Of a stretch of 28,444 nucleotides of DNA, positions 2,776 through 13,617 are shown in pieces (the stretch's first letter is position 1; every line of letters starts with the position of its first letter). Source of the DNA: an uncultured archaeon (GTDB taxonomy: Archaea; Asgardarchaeota; Lokiarchaeia; Sigyniarchaeales; SOKP01); assembly GCA_964486045.1 (NCBI GenBank), contig CAZALK010000028.1:1-28444 (forward strand), given 5' to 3'. The notes below the pieces were generated by a model. That model was not told the DNA's origin, ran no database searches, and saw only the letters and a list, made by a program, of their open reading frames with translations. The translations under genes and the position numbers were made by a program.

Positions 2776-5700
2776 TTATTTTAATTTCCAATGTTTTCTT
2801 CCCATCTTAACTTCTACTAACACTTCTCCTTTTCGTTCTAATTCTTTGAGTTTCAGTTGAAGATATCTCGCATCCATCATATCTTTAATTTTTAGTTTAA
2901 AAATAAGATGTTTAATTGTCTGCAAATCAGTAGATAATGCTTTGAGGATTCCATCGGTAGTTATTATTGGTAAGGTTGTTTGAGTGGATTTTGGTTTTGA
3001 AGGTAGTAGCTTGGATTTAACCTTACTTGGAATTTTCTTTACAGATAATTCGACTTTTTTTAATTTTACCACTTTTGTTAGTTGCGCTAAAGGTTCTACT
3101 ATTTCTGTTTTTTTATAGGTTTTTAATTCAGGCTTCTTAGTACCATCTTTAATTCCTAAAGAGTCAAGAATTTGATCAATTATATCAGGTTTCTTTGTTT
3201 TTGAGAGAATATGAATATTTTTTCTATTACAATAATCCTTAAGCTCTTTTACGGACCAATTAAGCAATGTTGTTTTAGAAATAATTTCTTTTTCAATTGG
3301 TTTCTCTCTCTTTTTAATCTCTATTTCTGACTTTTTTTCTATAATTTGATCTTTTTCTTTAATTTCAACAACTTGAGGTGTTTTGGGTTTTAAATCATTA
3401 ATGGTAGTAGGAGCAGGCTTTTTGTCTATCGCTTCCTTCATTAAAGTTTCAATTTCTTTAAGATCTAACATTGCTTTAAATTTACTCTCCCCTTTAGATG
3501 CAATATTATATACACTTTCAGCGAATAGTGGGATATATTTTGCTATTAAACTTGATCTTTTTTCATTTCTATAAATACTCTCTTTCCTGTTAATGTAAAC
3601 TCTTAATCTTCTTCCTATTGCTTCAAGGCAAAATTTAATTTCTTTTATTAAATCACCATCATCTGCTAAGGCGTTTTTTGATTGAGATTTAAACATTAAA
3701 TGTACAAATGGTCCAGAAATGTTTACGAGTAATTTTATTGGACCTTTCGGTAAACCATTATCGTATCTCTCAAGATTGTAGTTTTTCCAGTTAACTGACT
3801 GAACTGCTTTTGTGATTGCACAATCAGCACTATCTCTTAACTTAGGTGTTCTATTCACAAATCTAGATAATACATCTCTTGAACGTTTAGGAACTTCTAT
3901 ATTTCTTGAATAAGCCAAAACGGCTTCTACAATATATGCTAATCCCTTTCCACTCGTAGGTGCTCTAGTCTCTGCTGATACGAAGTCATCATCTTTTGTG
4001 TAATTTTCAATAAAATATTCAAATACTTTACTATAATTTTCAATTGATTCAACTTCAGAATATGCAAATAGTTCATCAATAGCTTGCTTAATTTGTTGAT
4101 CTTCAAGTTTTTGATTTTCATCAATGTAATTGATATTTCTTAAAATAGCATAACTTAGATTGATGACTTCTTCTGATTCTACAGAAACATTATTATTAAT
4201 TTCAGAATGATTATTGATATCTTTATTTAATATATCAACTGTCTGATTTATAGTTTCGATTGGTGGATCAAAATCATCAACACCTTCTGAAATTTTGAGC
4301 CCAATTTCTTTTATTAGTGTGTTTTCTAAAATTGATTCACCAACAGGTATCGCTGTATCCGTTGGAGGTGCCATATATTTAATAGATTTAAATGCTAAGA
4401 ATAATGAATTAAATTGTTCTTTAGTAATATCACTTGGCTTTACATTTGACAGCTGAACTTTCCTAATTAAATCCTCGAAATCACTTCGATTTGTTATTTT
4501 TTTTAATTCAATTAACCCATTTAAGTTTCTTTGAATTAAATTGTTTAGTTCCTGTTTGATTTTTTCTTTATCTTTTTTGATTTTATCAATATTTTTAATT
4601 AATGCTTTTATTTCCTTTTCCAGCTTCTTCTTTTCCTTTTGGGTATCAACCTTTTCAACACGATTATTTATTTTTTTAATTTCTTTATTAATTTTTTCTG
4701 AACTCTTCTCAATCAGAATATAATTCGAGATTAACATCCAATATTTTTCTATGAGATCCTCAGAGTCTACCCGATAAATTATTAGTTTATCCCTCGGTTT
4801 AGTTGAACGACCAAAAATTCTTTTTTCAACTTTTAGATAATGGATTTTTTCTTCTTTTTTTTTAATCTTACTAATATACCCTTCCTTGAGAATCAGAAAA
4901 TTAAATTTATCCTGAAGGTTTCTTTCAGCCAATTTAATAATTTGATTGGCAGTTTTTGAGCTAATTCGAACAAAATTTTCTTTTAAGAATGATAAAATTG
5001 ATTTATTTTCAGATTTTGTAATTAAATCCTGGAGATCGCCAATATTAGCTGAAGAAGGATGAGGTTTTGCATATTTAGGCTCTTGTGGAAAATAAGATGC
5101 TAATCGACGGTAAATTTTTTCTTTTCCATAAGGATCAGTGTAAATTACTGTAATGTGAGGATTCATAAAAGCAGTTTCTTCAACATATTTTTCTACGTAA
5201 CCCCTTACATATTTAACGTTTAAATAATTCAATTTAATATAGGTTCCGTGTAAAAATGGGCTATCAATATCGGTTGGATGAATTAAATATTTCTTCTCAT
5301 TTTTAGACGTAGTAAAAAATTCACTAACTGTAGCATAGACATTATCAACAGTCTTTGATACAGCTATAATGGGTTTTCCCGTCGTGTTTTGTGCATCACT
5401 AAAAGCACTTGGTGATCCGAATCCTTGACTCCCTCTTGTTTGTTTTAATTCCATTGATTTAGATGAAGCTAGATACTTTCCGAATTTTCTTAAATCAATT
5501 TTTGACATTCCTGTTCCGTTATCAAATATTTCAAAAGTAAAACTCATGACATTTTTCTGACTTATTTCAGATGTCAAATATGAAGGAGCTTCAAATTCTC
5601 TTATACGGACTATAGCAATCGGTTCCACATCTATAATATTTTCAACCGATTCTATGATCTCTTGCATATCATCAATTATTCTTTTAACTTCCTCCTCCAC

Positions 5701-6108
5701 TTCTAATTTAGTTTGACCAATAACATCCCCAGATTCTTCTTCTTTTATTTCGAGTTTAAAAATGGCAGATTCCTCCAACTTAGGTGATTCTATGCCAAAT
5801 TCTTGCATGAGTGTGTGTTTGGCCTCGTTATCTAATTGCTGGGTCTTTTTTTCCTCATTTGCAGCTTCTAAAATTGAAAACTTTTCTAGAAATAAATCTT
5901 GATCCAAAGAAAATTTAAATTTTGAATCAGTTTTTCTTAATTCTTTCCATTGGAAGCTTTCAATAGCATCAAGTGCATTATCAATAAATTCTGCACAATA
6001 TTGAACATGTTTCCAATATCCAAATTCAAAACCTACTAATTGGGTGCGTTTTCGCATAAATTCTGCGATTGTACCTTGCTTTATTTTTCCTTCCTCTTCA
6101 GTTGAAAT
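2776..6108 (-). CDS. top6B: DNA topoisomerase VI subunit B, greatly expanded (~1100 aa)
   Basis: GHKL motifs EFIDNALDA, DNGTGM, SSK..QTRGSQGFG, HGT; KPHP before the H2TH domain; transducer RFVNRTP, VNWKNY, FKSQSK. The conserved N-terminal AEF strap lies upstream of the ORF-track ATG (6057), so the start is placed tentatively at ATT 6108. Confidence 0.93.
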   Translation of the reverse strand: MSTEEEGKIKQGTIAEFMRKRTQLVGFEFGYWKHVQYCAEFIDNALDAIESFQWKELRKTDSKFKFSLDQDLFLEKFSILEAANEEKKTQQLDNEAKHTLMQEFGIESPKLEESAIFKLEIKEEESGDVIGQTKLEVEEEVKRIIDDMQEIIESVENIIDVEPIAIVRIREFEAPSYLTSEISQKNVMSFTFEIFDNGTGMSKIDLRKFGKYLASSKSMELKQTRGSQGFGSPSAFSDAQNTTGKPIIAVSKTVDNVYATVSEFFTTSKNEKKYLIHPTDIDSPFLHGTYIKLNYLNVKYVRGYVEKYVEETAFMNPHITVIYTDPYGKEKIYRRLASYFPQEPKYAKPHPSSANIGDLQDLITKSENKSILSFLKENFVRISSKTANQIIKLAERNLQDKFNFLILKEGYISKIKKKEEKIHYLKVEKRIFGRSTKPRDKLIIYRVDSEDLIEKYWMLISNYILIEKSSEKINKEIKKINNRVEKVDTQKEKKKLEKEIKALIKNIDKIKKDKEKIKQELNNLIQRNLNGLIELKKITNRSDFEDLIRKVQLSNVKPSDITKEQFNSLFLAFKSIKYMAPPTDTAIPVGESILENTLIKEIGLKISEGVDDFDPPIETINQTVDILNKDINNHSEINNNVSVESEEVINLSYAILRNINYIDENQKLEDQQIKQAIDELFAYSEVESIENYSKVFEYFIENYTKDDDFVSAETRAPTSGKGLAYIVEAVLAYSRNIEVPKRSRDVLSRFVNRTPKLRDSADCAITKAVQSVNWKNYNLERYDNGLPKGPIKLLVNISGPFVHLMFKSQSKNALADDGDLIKEIKFCLEAIGRRLRVYINRKESIYRNEKRSSLIAKYIPLFAESVYNIASKGESKFKAMLDLKEIETLMKEAIDKKPAPTTINDLKPKTPQVVEIKEKDQIIEKKSEIEIKKREKPIEKEIISKTTLLNWSVKELKDYCNRKNIHILSKTKKPDIIDQILDSLGIKDGTKKPELKTYKKTEIVEPLAQLTKVVKLKKVELSVKKIPSKVKSKLLPSKPKSTQTTLPIITTDGILKALSTDLQTIKHLIFKLKIKDMMDARYLQLKLKELERKGEVLVEVKMGRKHWKLK

Positions 6109-7819: not shown

Positions 7820-10168
7820 TTATGGATTTAAATCTATAATTTTTAAACTCAAATTCAATTTTAATGCAAAATTATGGAATTTTTTGAATTTTTCTGGGTT
7901 AAGAGATAAATCCGGTGATTGCAGAATTTCCATAAATTTTTTTCCATAATATGTTTTGTTAATTTCTGATAGATCATACCTAAGTTCATCATCTTCAAAA
8001 AATCGAGTAATTTTTGCAAATTCAAATTCATCTTTTCTTAGGTTTAAAATTGTATTAGCATATTTAAAAAAAGAAGTATTTCTTAGTTTTTTTAAATTAA
8101 ATATCTCAGTACTTCCGGGAACTCGTTTACTTAAGATCTTTTTTATGAATGAGTGGATTTTGTTTAAAAATTCTTTTTTAGATTCGTTTAAATTAAGATC
8201 AAGACTAAGAATGTCTCTCAGGATTTCAGAATAATGCAAATTTATTCCATTTAATTCATTAGTTAAATCCAATAATAATAGAAGTTGATCAGATCTTGAA
8301 TCAAAATCTAATTTAAGGTCTTCAAAAATAAATTCTTTTTCTTTAAAAATAAAATCAAATAAAAACTCTCTAAAAGTTTGAACGAATTGGGGGTAATTCG
8401 GGAGATAAATTTTGTTGGGATTATTTAAAACTAATTCATTCGCTTGAAATGGATTTATCTCTTTATCTAGAACTGCTTTTGCTAGAGATAAAGGATAGAA
8501 ACCTTCGATAAAGGTCATTCCTAAAGAAATACTTCTTAGTGCATCCTTAAATGAGCATTTTGCAATAACATTAACATTTTTAATAATATTACTTTCGATT
8601 TTAATAGGAGTTTTTTTACAATAGCAAAGATCAAATGGTTTTAAGTCATGAAATAAGGAATTATTTTGATCAGGAATAATTATTTGAGAGCCGTAAGCAC
8701 TTACTATACTACCCTGAATTGGCTTATTTGCTAAATCCCATTCAATAATATTTATATCTTCAGAATCTTTCTGTTCACCTTCATAACTATATTCAACATT
8801 TTTACTTAATAAGGAGAATCCATCTATTGATTTAATAGAAAAATCATCTTCCCCCCAAAACTGTGTTTTGTAGTAATTTACGTCCTGAAAAGCACTTAAA
8901 TCATCTAAAAACAATTCTTTAATTATAAAATAATTGGTTCCAATTTCAGAGGATTTTATAGTTTGTTCATTTATACCATAAAAACCAATATGAGAAATAA
9001 TGTAACTGTAAACTGGATTTTTTAAGTTATCTTCAGCATGTTTTACAATATATGCGTTTCTTTTTTTTCTGAGTTCCCCTTTGGTGATTTTTATGCCATT
9101 CTTTTCTATTAATAATTTCAGAAAAGCGAATTTTTTTAAATATACTTTTTTCTCTAATTGCTTTATTTCTAGCTTATATTCCTTATATTCACTATCATAC
9201 CCCTCTTCAGGAATTTCTAACACTCTAAAATGTTTTTTTAACATTTTTAATTTATCTATTAAACAAAAATTATCGATTTCTGATATGAAATAATGCCCCA
9301 ATTTCTCTCTAAGTGAAATTAGCTTTTCACTAGGTATAATCTCCTTAAAATCAGGATTAAGTTTTATTAATTCCTCTTTATTTTTTAGTATAAGATATAT
9401 CGAGAAATAATTATCATTAAAATTTGTGCTTTTTATCATTGACCTCAACTTATTAATAAAGGATGCAATAATTCTGATTTCTTTAAATTCTAATATTTTG
9501 TTAATTGACTCAATGATTTTTAGTAGATTGTAAAATGAAAATTCATGGATTGTTTTTAAGAATTTTTGGAATCCTACTTTAATAATATCATCAAATTTAG
9601 CGAAATACTCGAGCAATTTGTTGACGTATCCATATTCTAAGAATTCAAAGAATTCATTAAACAAATTATTATCAATTGCGATTGTTAGAAAATCCTCAAT
9701 GATTGGTTCATTATTATGTTGATTAACGATTGCTTTGTTCAAATAATTAAGAGTTTCGACACAATTTTTCCTATCAAAACAATTATTGGCCAATAGTTGA
9801 AAATTTTTGCTTTTTTTTCTAGAACCTAAATCATCGGAAGTAAGAGAATATTTATTTAAATTCATTAAAATTTTATTTGAATGCTGATACTTAACGATCA
9901 TTAGCAATTTAATAAAATGAACACAGATTTTTTTGTCCCTTTCTGAATGGATTAAAAATAAGGGGCAATCGTGAAAAATTTCATAGTTTTTTTCGTCTAT
10001 AATAAGGTGATATTCGCGATCGTTATCTAAAATGATGCTTCTAATCTTCAATGGTTCTTTCCGAGTAGAAAAAATGTTAATCTTATTGCTGGGGAATTTA
10101 AGAGATTTCTGATAAAAGTTTAGACCAAATTTTTCGATTATAAAATCTGATATAGATTTTTCCGTCAT
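7820..10168 (-). CDS. 782-aa protein with an N-terminal SWIM-like zinc finger and a long helical body
   Basis: YHLII...IFHDCPLF-x9-ICVHFIKLLM fits SWIM (CxC...CxH) with His in place of the first Cys. Starts 7 bp after the vWA stop. Confidence 0.7.
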   Translation of the reverse strand: MTEKSISDFIIEKFGLNFYQKSLKFPSNKINIFSTRKEPLKIRSIILDNDREYHLIIDEKNYEIFHDCPLFLIHSERDKKICVHFIKLLMIVKYQHSNKILMNLNKYSLTSDDLGSRKKSKNFQLLANNCFDRKNCVETLNYLNKAIVNQHNNEPIIEDFLTIAIDNNLFNEFFEFLEYGYVNKLLEYFAKFDDIIKVGFQKFLKTIHEFSFYNLLKIIESINKILEFKEIRIIASFINKLRSMIKSTNFNDNYFSIYLILKNKEELIKLNPDFKEIIPSEKLISLREKLGHYFISEIDNFCLIDKLKMLKKHFRVLEIPEEGYDSEYKEYKLEIKQLEKKVYLKKFAFLKLLIEKNGIKITKGELRKKRNAYIVKHAEDNLKNPVYSYIISHIGFYGINEQTIKSSEIGTNYFIIKELFLDDLSAFQDVNYYKTQFWGEDDFSIKSIDGFSLLSKNVEYSYEGEQKDSEDINIIEWDLANKPIQGSIVSAYGSQIIIPDQNNSLFHDLKPFDLCYCKKTPIKIESNIIKNVNVIAKCSFKDALRSISLGMTFIEGFYPLSLAKAVLDKEINPFQANELVLNNPNKIYLPNYPQFVQTFREFLFDFIFKEKEFIFEDLKLDFDSRSDQLLLLLDLTNELNGINLHYSEILRDILSLDLNLNESKKEFLNKIHSFIKKILSKRVPGSTEIFNLKKLRNTSFFKYANTILNLRKDEFEFAKITRFFEDDELRYDLSEINKTYYGKKFMEILQSPDLSLNPEKFKKFHNFALKLNLSLKIIDLNP

Positions 10169-10175
10169 TTTTATT

Positions 10176-12677
10176 TCAAAATCTTGATTTAATGATTTCG
10201 GAAATTAATTTTGGAAACTCATCCCAATTTTTTATAGTAAGTAATTGGCCTCCTGCAACTTTTACCATTTTATTGGCTTCCTTTAAGTTGTAAGAAGATT
10301 CGGGGCAGACTAAAATGAAATCTACTCCTAATGAACGCATAATTCTGAACTCTTCTATTGCATCTTTAAGATCAAAAATTTCTGCATCCGTGAATAAAAC
10401 ATTTAATTTTTCCCGTGAATATGAATGTTCCTTAAATTGTTTGTTTGCCCATTCTAGAGTCTTTTGCATTTTTGTTCCGCCTCGAGCAGAAACAGAAAGA
10501 AGATCATCTGCTAATTTTTCTAAATCAATTTTTTGATTTAAATTTTTTAGCACATGAGTATCGGATTCAAAAAATGAAATACCTAGTTCATCCTTACGCA
10601 TGCCATAACAAAGCATAGTTACACAAATACTCATGTAGGCAAGTTTTTCACCACTCATACTTCCTGATATATCGAGTTCGAAACACGCTGTCCTGAGACC
10701 TTTTGCGGTTTCAAAAACGAAGAAATCGTCATATTGTATATGTTCTAGTTTTTTTCCCTTTTCTAATATGTTAAAAATTGTCTCTTCAAGGTCTATATTT
10801 TCAAAATCATCCCCTATTGTATAAGGTCTTACAATATTTATTGGAATCGGACCTGTGGTGGAACTACCTAAGCGAGCGCGGGAATAATATATACCTAATT
10901 CAATTAAGACTTTTTTTGCTAATTCTTTCACTTTTTGCTTCGCTGTAGCAGGTAAATTCTCTCTATGCATAAACCATTGTTTAAGTAAATTTTCTCCACT
11001 ACCTGCATGTAGGCAAGATATCATCATATCTTGCGCTTCTTTACCACCAATTTGTTGAGCTCCTTTTAAAGCCTCGCTTAAGTTAAAATTACCTAAAGCA
11101 CCTAATGCTTCTCTATTATCTGAGGCTAAAGCACTAGCTATCAATTCGTTAAACCTTTCAGGGTTTAGCTGATCACTTATTTGATTCATTAAACTACTTA
11201 ATCGTTGAAAATCAGCTGATTTTTTATCAATTAATTTTTTCAATAATTGATAATTTGGTTCAATTAATTCATAGATCTCTTCCTCTGGCATATCAAGTTT
11301 TTTACCAACTCTATTTATATCCTCCGCTGACGGAGTTAATCCGATCTTTCTTAAAAATTCTGTAATATCCTTTAATTGATAAGCTGCTTCACTCGACTCT
11401 AAAGTCATTTTAGTAAGATCAGGAAGGTTTTGTGCTATTTTTTGGCTACAATGTAAATTTTGACAACTATTAGCAAGTTGCTGTATTTGATGAGAAAGAG
11501 ATTTGAATCCCTCAAACTTCTTGTTTTGGTTCATAGCTTCTTTTATAGCATTTTGAAGTGCTTGATTGAAAAGAGAATTCCAGGACTTGTTTGCATATGC
11601 TGTTTTAGTTAATGATTCCAATGAAAGATTCATTTTAGAAGAAGATTTTTGTTGATTAAACTTATCAAACAATGAAGCTCTTAGATCAGTTCCATAAAAT
11701 TGATCTAGTGAGTTTGCTAAATTAAAGTTATGCTCAAACGAAGAATTTTGTAATGAATTATTTAAGATCTTCTCTGAATCAAAATTAGGAGCTTCTCCTA
11801 ATGTTTTTGCAGCATTAAACAATTGATTTAAATTATCTATATGATTTTGCAGATCTTTCTTTAGATCTTGAAGAATATCTTTAGAAACAGCTTTTGTTTT
11901 ATCAAGGTATTTAATGGTCTGAATTAAATCTTCAATTTTCCCAGATTTAACTAAATTATCTAAATCTTTGGAAATATTTTTATTATTAAGAGCATTACTT
12001 GCTATTTTTTCCCAAGATCGAATAGATCTTTTTTGAATTAAATTATCTAGACCTAATAAATGACCTGCTTTTAGATCTTCAGGATCTAAGGAGTTTATTC
12101 TATTGGTTAACCTCTTTTTTGCTTCCTCAAGTAATTTATTAAACGAATTTATTTCCTCTTTATATAATTCAGAATCATCATTAAAAAAGTTCATGGCAGC
12201 TTCAATTTGTTCCTCCCCTCTTTTCCGACTTAAAGCTTCCATAAAATTTTCCATTTGTTCAATAAGATTTGTATCGATTGATTTAGATACTTCAATTTCA
12301 TCGATTAATTCTTGTAGTTGGTCTAATTCAGACATTAATTCTGATTTTTCTGCCTTATCCTCAAGCTCAGAAATTTCTCCATCATTAAAAAAAGAATTCA
12401 TCATATTTTTCTTATAATTTGGAAACAAAACTTCAAACGAGATTTCTTTTGCTAAGTGTTGATTATCTGGGAATGAGGTAACTGTACTAATTTCAATAAA
12501 ATCATTTGGAGTTACATAACCCTTCCGGTAATATCTTGAGACAATTAATTTTGGAATTGATAACACTTGTCGTGAAGATGGAATTTGAATTGTATCTGGA
12601 TGATTTCTCATCCTCCTAATAAATTCAACAGCAAAATCACATGGATTTTCAGGAAAGACTCCCAAAAGATTATCCAC
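10176..12677 (-). CDS. vWA (MIDAS) domain protein, MoxR partner, with N-terminal AAA+ lid-like domain
   Basis: C-terminal vWA with DISGS (DxSxS), GGT and FTDA, preceded by RPYTIGDD..IDLEETI. Overlaps the MoxR stop. The true start may be TTG a few codons in, after AGGTGG. Confidence 0.88.
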   Translation of the reverse strand: MDNLLGVFPENPCDFAVEFIRRMRNHPDTIQIPSSRQVLSIPKLIVSRYYRKGYVTPNDFIEISTVTSFPDNQHLAKEISFEVLFPNYKKNMMNSFFNDGEISELEDKAEKSELMSELDQLQELIDEIEVSKSIDTNLIEQMENFMEALSRKRGEEQIEAAMNFFNDDSELYKEEINSFNKLLEEAKKRLTNRINSLDPEDLKAGHLLGLDNLIQKRSIRSWEKIASNALNNKNISKDLDNLVKSGKIEDLIQTIKYLDKTKAVSKDILQDLKKDLQNHIDNLNQLFNAAKTLGEAPNFDSEKILNNSLQNSSFEHNFNLANSLDQFYGTDLRASLFDKFNQQKSSSKMNLSLESLTKTAYANKSWNSLFNQALQNAIKEAMNQNKKFEGFKSLSHQIQQLANSCQNLHCSQKIAQNLPDLTKMTLESSEAAYQLKDITEFLRKIGLTPSAEDINRVGKKLDMPEEEIYELIEPNYQLLKKLIDKKSADFQRLSSLMNQISDQLNPERFNELIASALASDNREALGALGNFNLSEALKGAQQIGGKEAQDMMISCLHAGSGENLLKQWFMHRENLPATAKQKVKELAKKVLIELGIYYSRARLGSSTTGPIPINIVRPYTIGDDFENIDLEETIFNILEKGKKLEHIQYDDFFVFETAKGLRTACFELDISGSMSGEKLAYMSICVTMLCYGMRKDELGISFFESDTHVLKNLNQKIDLEKLADDLLSVSARGGTKMQKTLEWANKQFKEHSYSREKLNVLFTDAEIFDLKDAIEEFRIMRSLGVDFILVCPESSYNLKEANKMVKVAGGQLLTIKNWDEFPKLISEIIKSRF

Positions 12678-13617
12678 CTAAGGTTTTATGTATGATATTC
12701 TCAATAACATTTTCTACTTTTACACCGGGTTTAGGTTTGATACTTCCTAATAAAACATTTTTAGCAATCTCAGATAGAAAGATATATACAGATTCTTTTT
12801 CTCCTGTTTTTTTCTTCTTTTCCATCAACCGTTTCCTTCCTAATAATTTTGCCATGGCAATTCCTGCTCTTACAGAAGCGGGTATATCAATATCGACCTT
12901 ATTTTGCCTTGTTTCTTTTATAACTGAGTATATTAATTCTAATTCAGATTCCTCTATAAGAAAGTGTTCAGGTAAATTAATTCTTATTATATCTAGCTCA
13001 GTTGATTTATCAGGGTAAGTCAATTTTATCCACACTTTTATTCTATCTTTTAGTGCTTCAGATAAACGATGAGTTCCTGATAGTTCCTCAGGGTTCATTG
13101 CACATATGAAAAAGAAATCCTTATCTGCTTTTATCCTCCCTAAATGAGGTATTGCTATTGAGGCTTCTTCTAAAGGCTCTAATAAAGTATTTTGAGAATA
13201 TTCTGTTGACCTGTTAATTTCATTTGCTAAGAACGTTCCACCCTCTAGCATCGCATTCAATAATGGTCCAGGGTTAAATGCTTCTAATACAAAACCCTTT
13301 TTCAACGTGATAGCAGGATCAAATGACCCAATAAAATGTGATGGTTTGATGCTTTCATCCATGGTAAGCCAATTGAAGCTTCTATTTTTGTTTTCTTTCG
13401 CTCTAAGACTAGCGAAATATCTACATAAAATAGTCTTTCCAACTCCGGGTGGACCTACTAGGGAGGGAAATAATCCAGTCGCCTCTGCGTCTCTTAGTAA
13501 TTCGAGTGCTTTGCCATATTGTCCTGAAAGAACTATTTCAATTTGTTCTTCGGTAATATCTTTAATGAGATGTTGATTAAATAATTCTTCAAAATGTTGT
13601 TTATTTATCATTCTCAA
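12670..13617 (-). CDS. MoxR-family AAA+ ATPase
   Basis: Walker A GPPGVGKT, GPLLNAM, Walker B variant FLANEINR, QNTLL, AMNP (sensor I), LSEALKDR (Arg finger), PASVRA (sensor II). Confidence 0.92.
   Translation of the reverse strand: MRMINKQHFEELFNQHLIKDITEEQIEIVLSGQYGKALELLRDAEATGLFPSLVGPPGVGKTILCRYFASLRAKENKNRSFNWLTMDESIKPSHFIGSFDPAITLKKGFVLEAFNPGPLLNAMLEGGTFLANEINRSTEYSQNTLLEPLEEASIAIPHLGRIKADKDFFFICAMNPEELSGTHRLSEALKDRIKVWIKLTYPDKSTELDIIRINLPEHFLIEESELELIYSVIKETRQNKVDIDIPASVRAGIAMAKLLGRKRLMEKKKKTGEKESVYIFLSEIAKNVLLGSIKPKPGVKVENVIENIIHKTLGG

Follow-up and report, generated by a model that had tools for sequence, protein, structure and literature searches.

The DNA stretch analysed here, referred to as the window, comprises positions 1 to 28,444 of contig CAZALK010000028.1 (assembly GCA_964486045.1) of an uncultured archaeon of the Lokiarchaeia, and has a G+C content of 29%. 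It carries a cluster of three genes, all of which are located on the minus strand, as are the features of these genes for which coordinates are given below. The central gene, P0001 (10176-12677, recognized as an open reading frame (ORF) with its translation; stop codon at 10176-10178), encodes a protein of 833 amino acids including its GTG start that ends in a von Willebrand factor A (VWA) domain with a MIDAS motif (metal ion-dependent adhesion site). Directly upstream, and overlapping P0001 by 8 nt when the GTG start of the latter is used, P0002 (12670-13617) encodes the partner motor, a MoxR-type AAA+ ATPase of 315 amino acids (Pfam AAA_5 at 1e-16, AAA_3 at 6e-13). The third gene, P0003 (7820-10168), follows P0001 downstream after 7 nt and encodes a protein of 782 amino acids with a SWIM-like finger. 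The first ~90 residues of the VWA protein very probably represent a paralogous duplicate of the four final helices of the MoxR lid; they have kept the sensor-2 arginine and have no nucleotide-binding core.

The N-terminal domain of the VWA protein and the lid of its MoxR partner

To obtain homologs of P0001, 1.84 billion representative proteins were searched. At E<1e-30 this gave 117 relatives, many being full-length sequences of 23-40% identity. The number of homologs found was 370, and across Loki-type genomes the identity was 74-90%. For the determination of conservation, 65 of the 117 relatives, ranging from 20 to 66% in identity, were aligned. The best-conserved region of the protein was residues 8-90, where the mean majority-residue fraction was 0.49; it was 0.41 in the VWA domain and 0.22 in the acidic stretch behind the N-terminal domain. 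The sole invariant column across the whole protein was R36 (65/65 homologs; 12570-12572), and F15, R24, A76 and A80 were at least 90% conserved. Among the Loki-type sequences the N-terminal conservation score was 0.94. A Walker A motif was not present anywhere in P0001. As the N-terminal domain starts at about residue 8 without a P-loop core, it is to be regarded as a lid homolog and not as part of an AAA+ module. The preliminary description of this locus had read a MoxR/chelatase lid pattern, including the sensor-2 arginine, into residues ~13-85; this pattern is real and conserved, and the homology to such a lid without its core was supported by profile comparison, hidden Markov model (HMM) searches, structure prediction followed by structural alignment, and a language-model search, on which the delineation of the lid-like domain (residues 1-95; 12393-12677) is based.

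An HMM was built from residues 8-92 of P0001. When it was run against all 13453 ORFs of its own genome, the best non-self match was the lid of the adjacent MoxR (E 0.19), with R36 placed on the sensor-2 arginine. In 64 related loci with a total of 1773 ORFs, its matches at E<=0.01 comprised 57 VWA proteins and 44 partner MoxRs and no other ORF. All 44 MoxR matches were within the lid and in the same register of the HMM, the best of them having an E-value of 2e-6. Profile-profile alignment with hhalign of the N-terminal profile and 17 partner MoxRs gave a probability of 90-92% (P 6e-7 to 2e-6), and an independent profile of 30 Asgard MRP-type MoxRs was matched in the same register with P 3e-4. 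In the latter alignment the V-T-P-N-D of P0001 was positioned on the canonical V-x-P-D-D-V, and in both comparisons R36 was positioned on the sensor-2 arginine, the residue expected where the third lid helix starts. The hhalign scores were 45 for the partner MoxRs and 30 for the MRP-type MoxRs, versus a mean of 13 (standard deviation 2.3, maximum 22.6) for 150 column shuffles; the controls with reversed profiles scored 10 and 17. Under relaxed hhalign settings residues ~7 to ~86 of P0001 were colinear with the last ~96 residues of MoxR and reached the MoxR C-terminus.

The partner MoxR itself, which had been described as already possessing a lid, indeed has one at residues ~200-315 (12673-13020), with a P-A-S-I-R/P-A-S-x-R motif that is conserved in the 17 aligned partner MoxRs and an invariant sensor-2 arginine, R250 (12868-12870). 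Its Walker A motif is at residue 55. The Walker B motif is a variant, F-L-A-N-E (13219-13233), in which asparagine replaces the usual Mg-binding aspartate. This hhhANE form was present in 46 of the 48 partner MoxR ORFs, archaeal as well as bacterial.

The structure of residues 1-100 of P0001 was predicted with AlphaFold2 (AF2) from an alignment of 71 sequences. The model had a predicted local distance difference test score (pLDDT) of 90.9 and a predicted template modelling score of 0.79, and showed five helices (residues 12-25, 35-52, 57-66, 70-84 and 88-98). In a VIA-align comparison with 48,161 representative chains, the top match of this model was the BchI lid (1g8p, residues 267-350; Z 6.8, root-mean-square deviation 3.1 over 69 residues), and about a third of the top 50 matches were lids of dynein, midasin, MCM, CbbQ and ORC1. 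In a second VIA-align search, against the PDB, the highest rank went to the CbbQ lid (Z 6.0), and ranks 3 and 6 were taken by NorQ lids (Z 5.6). A language-model search of the ESM Atlas with residues 1-100 gave AAA_lid_8, AAA_lid_2, AAA_5 and CbbQ_C as the nearest named clusters, at 0.82-0.88, values that serve as leads only. An NCBIfam search and a phmmer search against PDB sequences, both with the N-terminus alone, yielded nothing. Taken together, the N-terminus of P0001 is very probably homologous to the lid of MoxR-type AAA+ proteins.

The remainder of P0001 starts with an acidic, poorly conserved stretch (residues 96-135; 12273-12392) in which 35% of the residues are aspartate or glutamate, the conservation is 0.22 and the pLDDT is below 40; low conservation and low model confidence extend over residues 96-215. 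It is followed by a region predicted to be helical (residues 136-590; 10908-12272). The full-length AF2 run was based on a shallow alignment of 24 close homologs. Residues 220-590 were nevertheless modelled as helices with a pLDDT of 77-91, the model being poor elsewhere, which argues for a folded helical domain instead of a plain linker. This domain, at residues ~216-590, is predicted to be helical-repeat-like, and a fold search with it returned only generic helical repeats (Z at most 8.1). Next is a conserved segment of the CoxE type (residues 591-664; 10686-10907; conservation 0.45 over residues 555-664), which was also matched in the fused actinobacterial proteins discussed below. PF27098, which is listed for some homologs of P0001, appears to cover this segment and not the N-terminus. 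The protein ends with the VWA domain (10179-10685; Pfam VWA_2 at 1e-8, VWA at 8e-8). VWA was the only Pfam assignment on P0001 (residues 664-825), and the match to VWA_CoxE (residues 664-796) was marginal. Of the 57-59 homologs whose sequences extend to the MIDAS, 56-58 have retained its residues D669, S671, S673, T735 and D764. Thus the acidic stretch and the intact MIDAS were found as they had been noted before; of the helical linker of about 500 residues that had been placed between them, the helical character held and the notion of a plain linker did not, since this part is largely a folded domain.

Distribution of the MoxR/VWA pair and its third gene

In genomes of the same phylum a match to the P0001 family at E<=1e-10 was present in 259 out of 301. 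The best 150 matches in these genomes all had E<=4e-183 and nearly all extended over the whole profile. For several of the matches in related genomes (G300, G174, G249, G267 and others) a single in-frame stop codon, TGA or TAA, falls within the listed match, which may reflect match overhangs, broken genes or another cause. A search for shorter relatives of P0001 gave only fragments of the same family, and in its own genome only one copy carries the N-terminal domain. The high conservation across Asgard archaea makes it probable that the family serves a core cellular process.

An ortholog of the MoxR gene was found immediately upstream of the VWA gene in all 16 Asgard loci that had been chosen from different families, and the MoxR gene was adjacent in most of the 64 further loci. 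For a wider scan one genome per species was taken and a profile from a 12-sequence subset was used. Among Asgard records, those of the Loki, Thor, Heimdall and Kari types contained the full-length family, examples being Promethearchaeum syntrophicum MK-D1 and Ca. Lokiarchaeum ossiferum. It was also present in Myxococcota and Planctomycetota, with the lid-like N-terminus and, in most of the bacterial loci, with a MoxR gene adjacent upstream. In Gemmataceae the lid-VWA gene follows the gene of an ABC-transporter ATPase instead of MoxR (L091:3816-4772, L165-L168); in the four genomes of this group that were checked, all four possessed the MoxR ortholog (41-47% identity) on another contig. The adjacency of MoxR, the co-occurrence of the two genes in Gemmataceae when they are unlinked, and the intact MIDAS point to an adaptor role of the VWA protein.

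The pair is accompanied in most loci by a gene for a SWIM-like protein. In P0003 the finger, H-x-C...C-x-H (H-x-C-P-D-F...C-K-H), is located at residues 66-84 (9917-9973), and a Pfam search of P0003 gave no match. In Loki-type loci the homologs of P0003 follow the VWA gene on its downstream side, and an ORF related to P0003 was found upstream of MoxR in many other loci, both bacterial and of other Asgard archaea.

Proposed docking on the MoxR ring and alternative explanations

MoxR/VWA pairs are widespread and poorly understood remodellers, and the docking of an adaptor N-terminal domain on the small subdomain of the ATPase was shown by cryo-electron microscopy (cryo-EM) only in 2026. In the structures of NorQ with NorD and of CobS with CobT the adaptors consist of an N-terminal domain, a long linker and a VWA domain with a finger that is inserted in the pore (PMC13036017; PMC9976466; bioRxiv 10.64898/2026.10.09.757910). 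The N-terminal domains of NorD and CobT bind to the small helical (lid) subdomain of the ATPase at the periphery and not in the active site, and CobT does so by means of a conserved arginine in helix 2 (PMC13036017; bioRxiv 10.64898/2026.10.09.757910). The locus studied here resembles NorQ/NorD, CobS/CobT and CbbQ/CbbO in that a gene for a MoxR/AAA_5-type ATPase is situated beside a VWA gene whose product has an N-terminal helical domain, a linker and a C-terminal VWA/MIDAS domain, and the partner-MoxR profile had NorQ and CbbQ among its top sequence matches in the PDB. P0001 fits the build of NorD and CobT, with R36 at the start of helix 2. It differs from them in its N-terminal domain, which can be recognized as a duplicate of the lid of the ATPase, a likeness that the papers on NorD and CobT do not report, and in its middle part, which is predicted to be a folded helical domain of ~375 residues instead of a disordered linker.

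We favour, with a probability of roughly 0.6, the explanation that P0001 is a VWA/MIDAS adaptor of the NorD/CobT/CbbO type for the upstream MoxR, in which an N-terminal domain of MoxR-lid origin docks on the MoxR ring. Because the cryo-EM studies of NorQD and CobST place the N-terminal domain of the adaptor on the small subdomain of the ATPase, the lid copy of P0001 probably docks on the MoxR ring in an analogous way. Its contact with the small subdomain of one of the subunits would then anchor the adaptor peripherally on the MoxR hexamer, and at this contact R36 would function as an interface residue rather than as a sensor of ATP. The acidic stretch and the helical domain would form an arm, at the end of which the VWA/MIDAS domain could engage both the ring and a client. 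Upon ATP hydrolysis the VWA domain would be shifted relative to the anchored N-terminus and the client would be remodelled, the SWIM-like third protein being the likely client or a specificity factor. The P0001 family would offer an evolutionary rationale for the docking, in that the proposed anchor duplicates the same subdomain to which it would bind and carries the one invariant arginine. The pairing of MoxR and VWA proteins was already known; new is a VWA adaptor whose putative anchor domain copies the lid of its motor. Remnants of this kind, consisting of a lid alone, go unnoticed by curated lid models, so that other adaptors may well contain comparable anchors.

Several results weigh against this explanation. 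Pfam lid models did not match the first 110 residues of P0001 even at E<=10. Foldseek of the N-terminal model against the PDB gave no significant match, the only candidates being bromodomains and globins at E ~0.5, so that of the two checks on the N-terminus proposed in the preliminary description the comparison with lid profiles was positive (P ~1e-6) and the Foldseek search was not. The VIA-align Z scores of 5.3-6.8 are within the chance range for helical bundles, and the lids share their rank with cyclin boxes and bromodomains. Furthermore, sequence similarity was not detected between the N-terminus of P0001 and the N-terminal domains of CobT and NorD, which implies that the analogy in the mode of docking may not hold. 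Finally, the VWA part of the full-length AF2 model had a pLDDT below 50, too poor for judging a pore finger.

A different role of the N-terminal domain could be envisaged, in which the lid copy is what remains of an AAA module of the ChlD/BchD kind after loss of the core, and now mainly recognizes the client or the SWIM protein, the contact with the ring being made by the VWA end alone. Relatives in which AAA_5, lid, linker and VWA are fused do exist, NorD's N-terminal domain has been proposed to give target specificity (Kahle et al., 2023; PMC9976466), and the VWA domain of NorQD by itself already binds the ring (PMC13036017). However, in P0001 the N-terminal domain is the most conserved part and is closest to the lid of its own partner (score of 45 versus 30), which is more readily reconciled with co-evolution with the ATPase than with that of a variable client, and the later cryo-EM work puts the N-terminal domains of NorD and CobT on the ATPase small subdomain. 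This alternative is thus considered unlikely. It may be added that Kahle et al. (2023) describe the N-terminal domains of the adaptors as unconserved (PMC9976466).

The invariance of R36 and its alignment with the sensor-2 arginine might also indicate that the orphan lid is inserted at the interface or seam between MoxR subunits and supplies R36 in trans to a nucleotide site, thereby capping or gating the ring, in line with the docking or capping proposed in the preliminary description, and regulating the ATPase. The asparagine in the Walker B motif of the partner MoxRs, which hints at an atypical handling of the nucleotide, would agree with this. Yet MoxR retains its own invariant R250, hence nothing needs to be supplied, and in NorQD and CobST the N-terminal domain is peripheral and outside the active site, which renders such a function in trans improbable.

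Equally doubtful is a function of the MoxR-VWA-SWIM triad in conflict or defence, like that of the MoxR-vWA ternary systems of multicellular bacteria, instead of as a housekeeping chaperone. These ternary conflict systems were described with emphasis on Myxococcota and Planctomycetota (Kaur et al., 2020; PMC7159879), two lineages in which the present family occurs, and the triad is a three-gene module in which the position of the third gene varies. PADLOC, however, returned nothing for the VWA or the SWIM-like protein and for MoxR only marginal generic AAA matches (TRIP13 and IetA; E ~0.002-0.005), and effector domains were absent. The identity among Loki-type sequences, the presence in 259 of the 301 genomes and the single copy of the N-terminal domain are unlike the sporadic occurrence and fast evolution of defence islands.

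With midasin (Rea1) the locus has in common modules of the AAA_5 type, an acidic region and a C-terminal MIDAS on a long arm; the midasin chain combines six AAA modules, whereas here the ATPase is a separate protein with a single module. A special kinship to midasin, to which the preliminary description had likened the locus, was not supported. In a search of the PDB with the partner-MoxR profile midasin ranked first (E 4e-56), as the sum over its six modules. The best single midasin module scored 45 bits, below MoxR 2R44 (76), CbbQ (53) and NorQ (52). The VWA profile did not find the MIDAS domain of midasin at E<=10 and matched the VWA domains of the calcium-channel alpha2delta, CobT and CLCA instead. 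As the family is moreover shared with bacteria, kinship was rejected and the likeness to midasin is an architectural analogy only. For the same reasons it is very improbable that the Asgard MoxR and lid-VWA proteins, with or without the SWIM protein, are, among prokaryotes, most closely related to the AAA-MIDAS remodellers of eukaryotes (midasin and VWA8), with the duplicated lid as the trace of the first step in the concatenation of AAA and MIDAS. Least credible of all is an unrelated small helical bundle that resembles a lid by convergence or chance, for which the silent Pfam lid models, the insignificant Foldseek result, the middling structural Z scores and the Atlas scores below 0.9 could be cited, because four independent methods led to the same family in the same register, the HMM matched not a single unrelated ORF and the real scores exceeded all 150 shuffles.

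For the origin of the adaptor favoured here, in which the lid copy docks on MoxR, the chelatases and the fused actinobacterial proteins are instructive. In BchI/BchD (ChlI/ChlD) a motor AAA+ protein is likewise combined with an adaptor that has an AAA-derived sequence, an acidic linker and a MIDAS/VWA domain. Hence the comparison with chelatase D subunits that had been made earlier is apt at the level of architecture, as the best structural match of the N-terminal domain was the BchI lid and fused AAA_5-lid-linker-VWA relatives exist. BchD possesses a whole, degenerate AAA module, whereas P0001 has only the last lid helices, ~90 residues ahead of the acidic stretch, and no P-loop; also, the VWA domain of P0001 is CoxE-like, unlike that of chelatase D. 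A catalytic partner of the ChlH/CobN type was not seen in the window.

In Actinomycetota, fused MoxR-VWA proteins of ~630-660 amino acids, annotated as 'MoxR-like ATPase/Mg-chelatase subunit ChlD', carry the lid directly before the linker and the VWA domain. Examples are the Acidimicrobiaceae proteins of ~648 amino acids in which AAA_5, lid, linker and a CoxE-like VWA domain are joined (L159:3669-5612, L163:3672-5612). Their AAA_5 part matched the HMM of the partner MoxRs at 1e-42 and their CoxE-like VWA part matched the family HMM at 1e-27. The fused forms are one chain with a single lid and without the long helical domain, whereas the Asgard pair is split and has the lid twice. Given that these proteins match both halves of the pair, the sequence comparison suggests two candidate origins of the lid copy, either a partial duplication at the junction of the MoxR and VWA genes or the loss of the core from a duplicated ChlD-like AAA-lid-linker-VWA fusion. 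The N-termini of some actinobacterial relatives of 392-395 amino acids fall within the final lid helices of the fused proteins, a hint at recurrent breakpoints close to the lid. Bacterial clusters were also listed in the ESM Atlas, of 413-511 amino acids (Actinomycetota, Verrucomicrobiota, Chloroflexota and Pseudomonadota) and annotated with AAA_lid_2 and VWA. From this unconfirmed lead, lid-plus-VWA proteins without a recognized core may be common, which tempers the novelty of the present finding. An AAA_lid_2 scan of five bacterial genomes listed ~40 matches, mostly in reading frames of ordinary MoxR size; no lid-plus-VWA protein was identified in this way, none of the matches having been examined further.

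Start codons and further observations

For P0001 two start codons are candidates: the GTG at 12677, which gives the 833 amino acids and the overlap with the MoxR stop, and a TTG four codons later (12663-12665), which is preceded by GGTGG. Both lengths occur in homologs, most of which begin at the TTG position and some at the longer start.

A MoxR, a VWA and a SWIM protein are also encoded in one operon in Escherichia coli, YehL-YehM-YehP-YehQ. The similarity was generic and at the level of domains (YehL 1e-13; YehP VWA 3e-7), no similarity was found for YehM and YehQ, and YehP is without a lid-like N-terminus. Orthology to YehLMPQ was rejected since the similarity was generic only. CobT was not found in five Myxococcota genomes, and a search of the literature revealed no paper that links AAA+ lids to adaptor N-termini and none on this Asgard family.

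The genes for topoisomerase VI A and B are also present in the window according to Pfam. The B gene (2776-6057, minus strand) encodes 1093 amino acids, with the ATPase motif near residues 172-226 and the transducer located at residues 689-833. Topoisomerase VI B usually has about half this length, and large insertions are possible.

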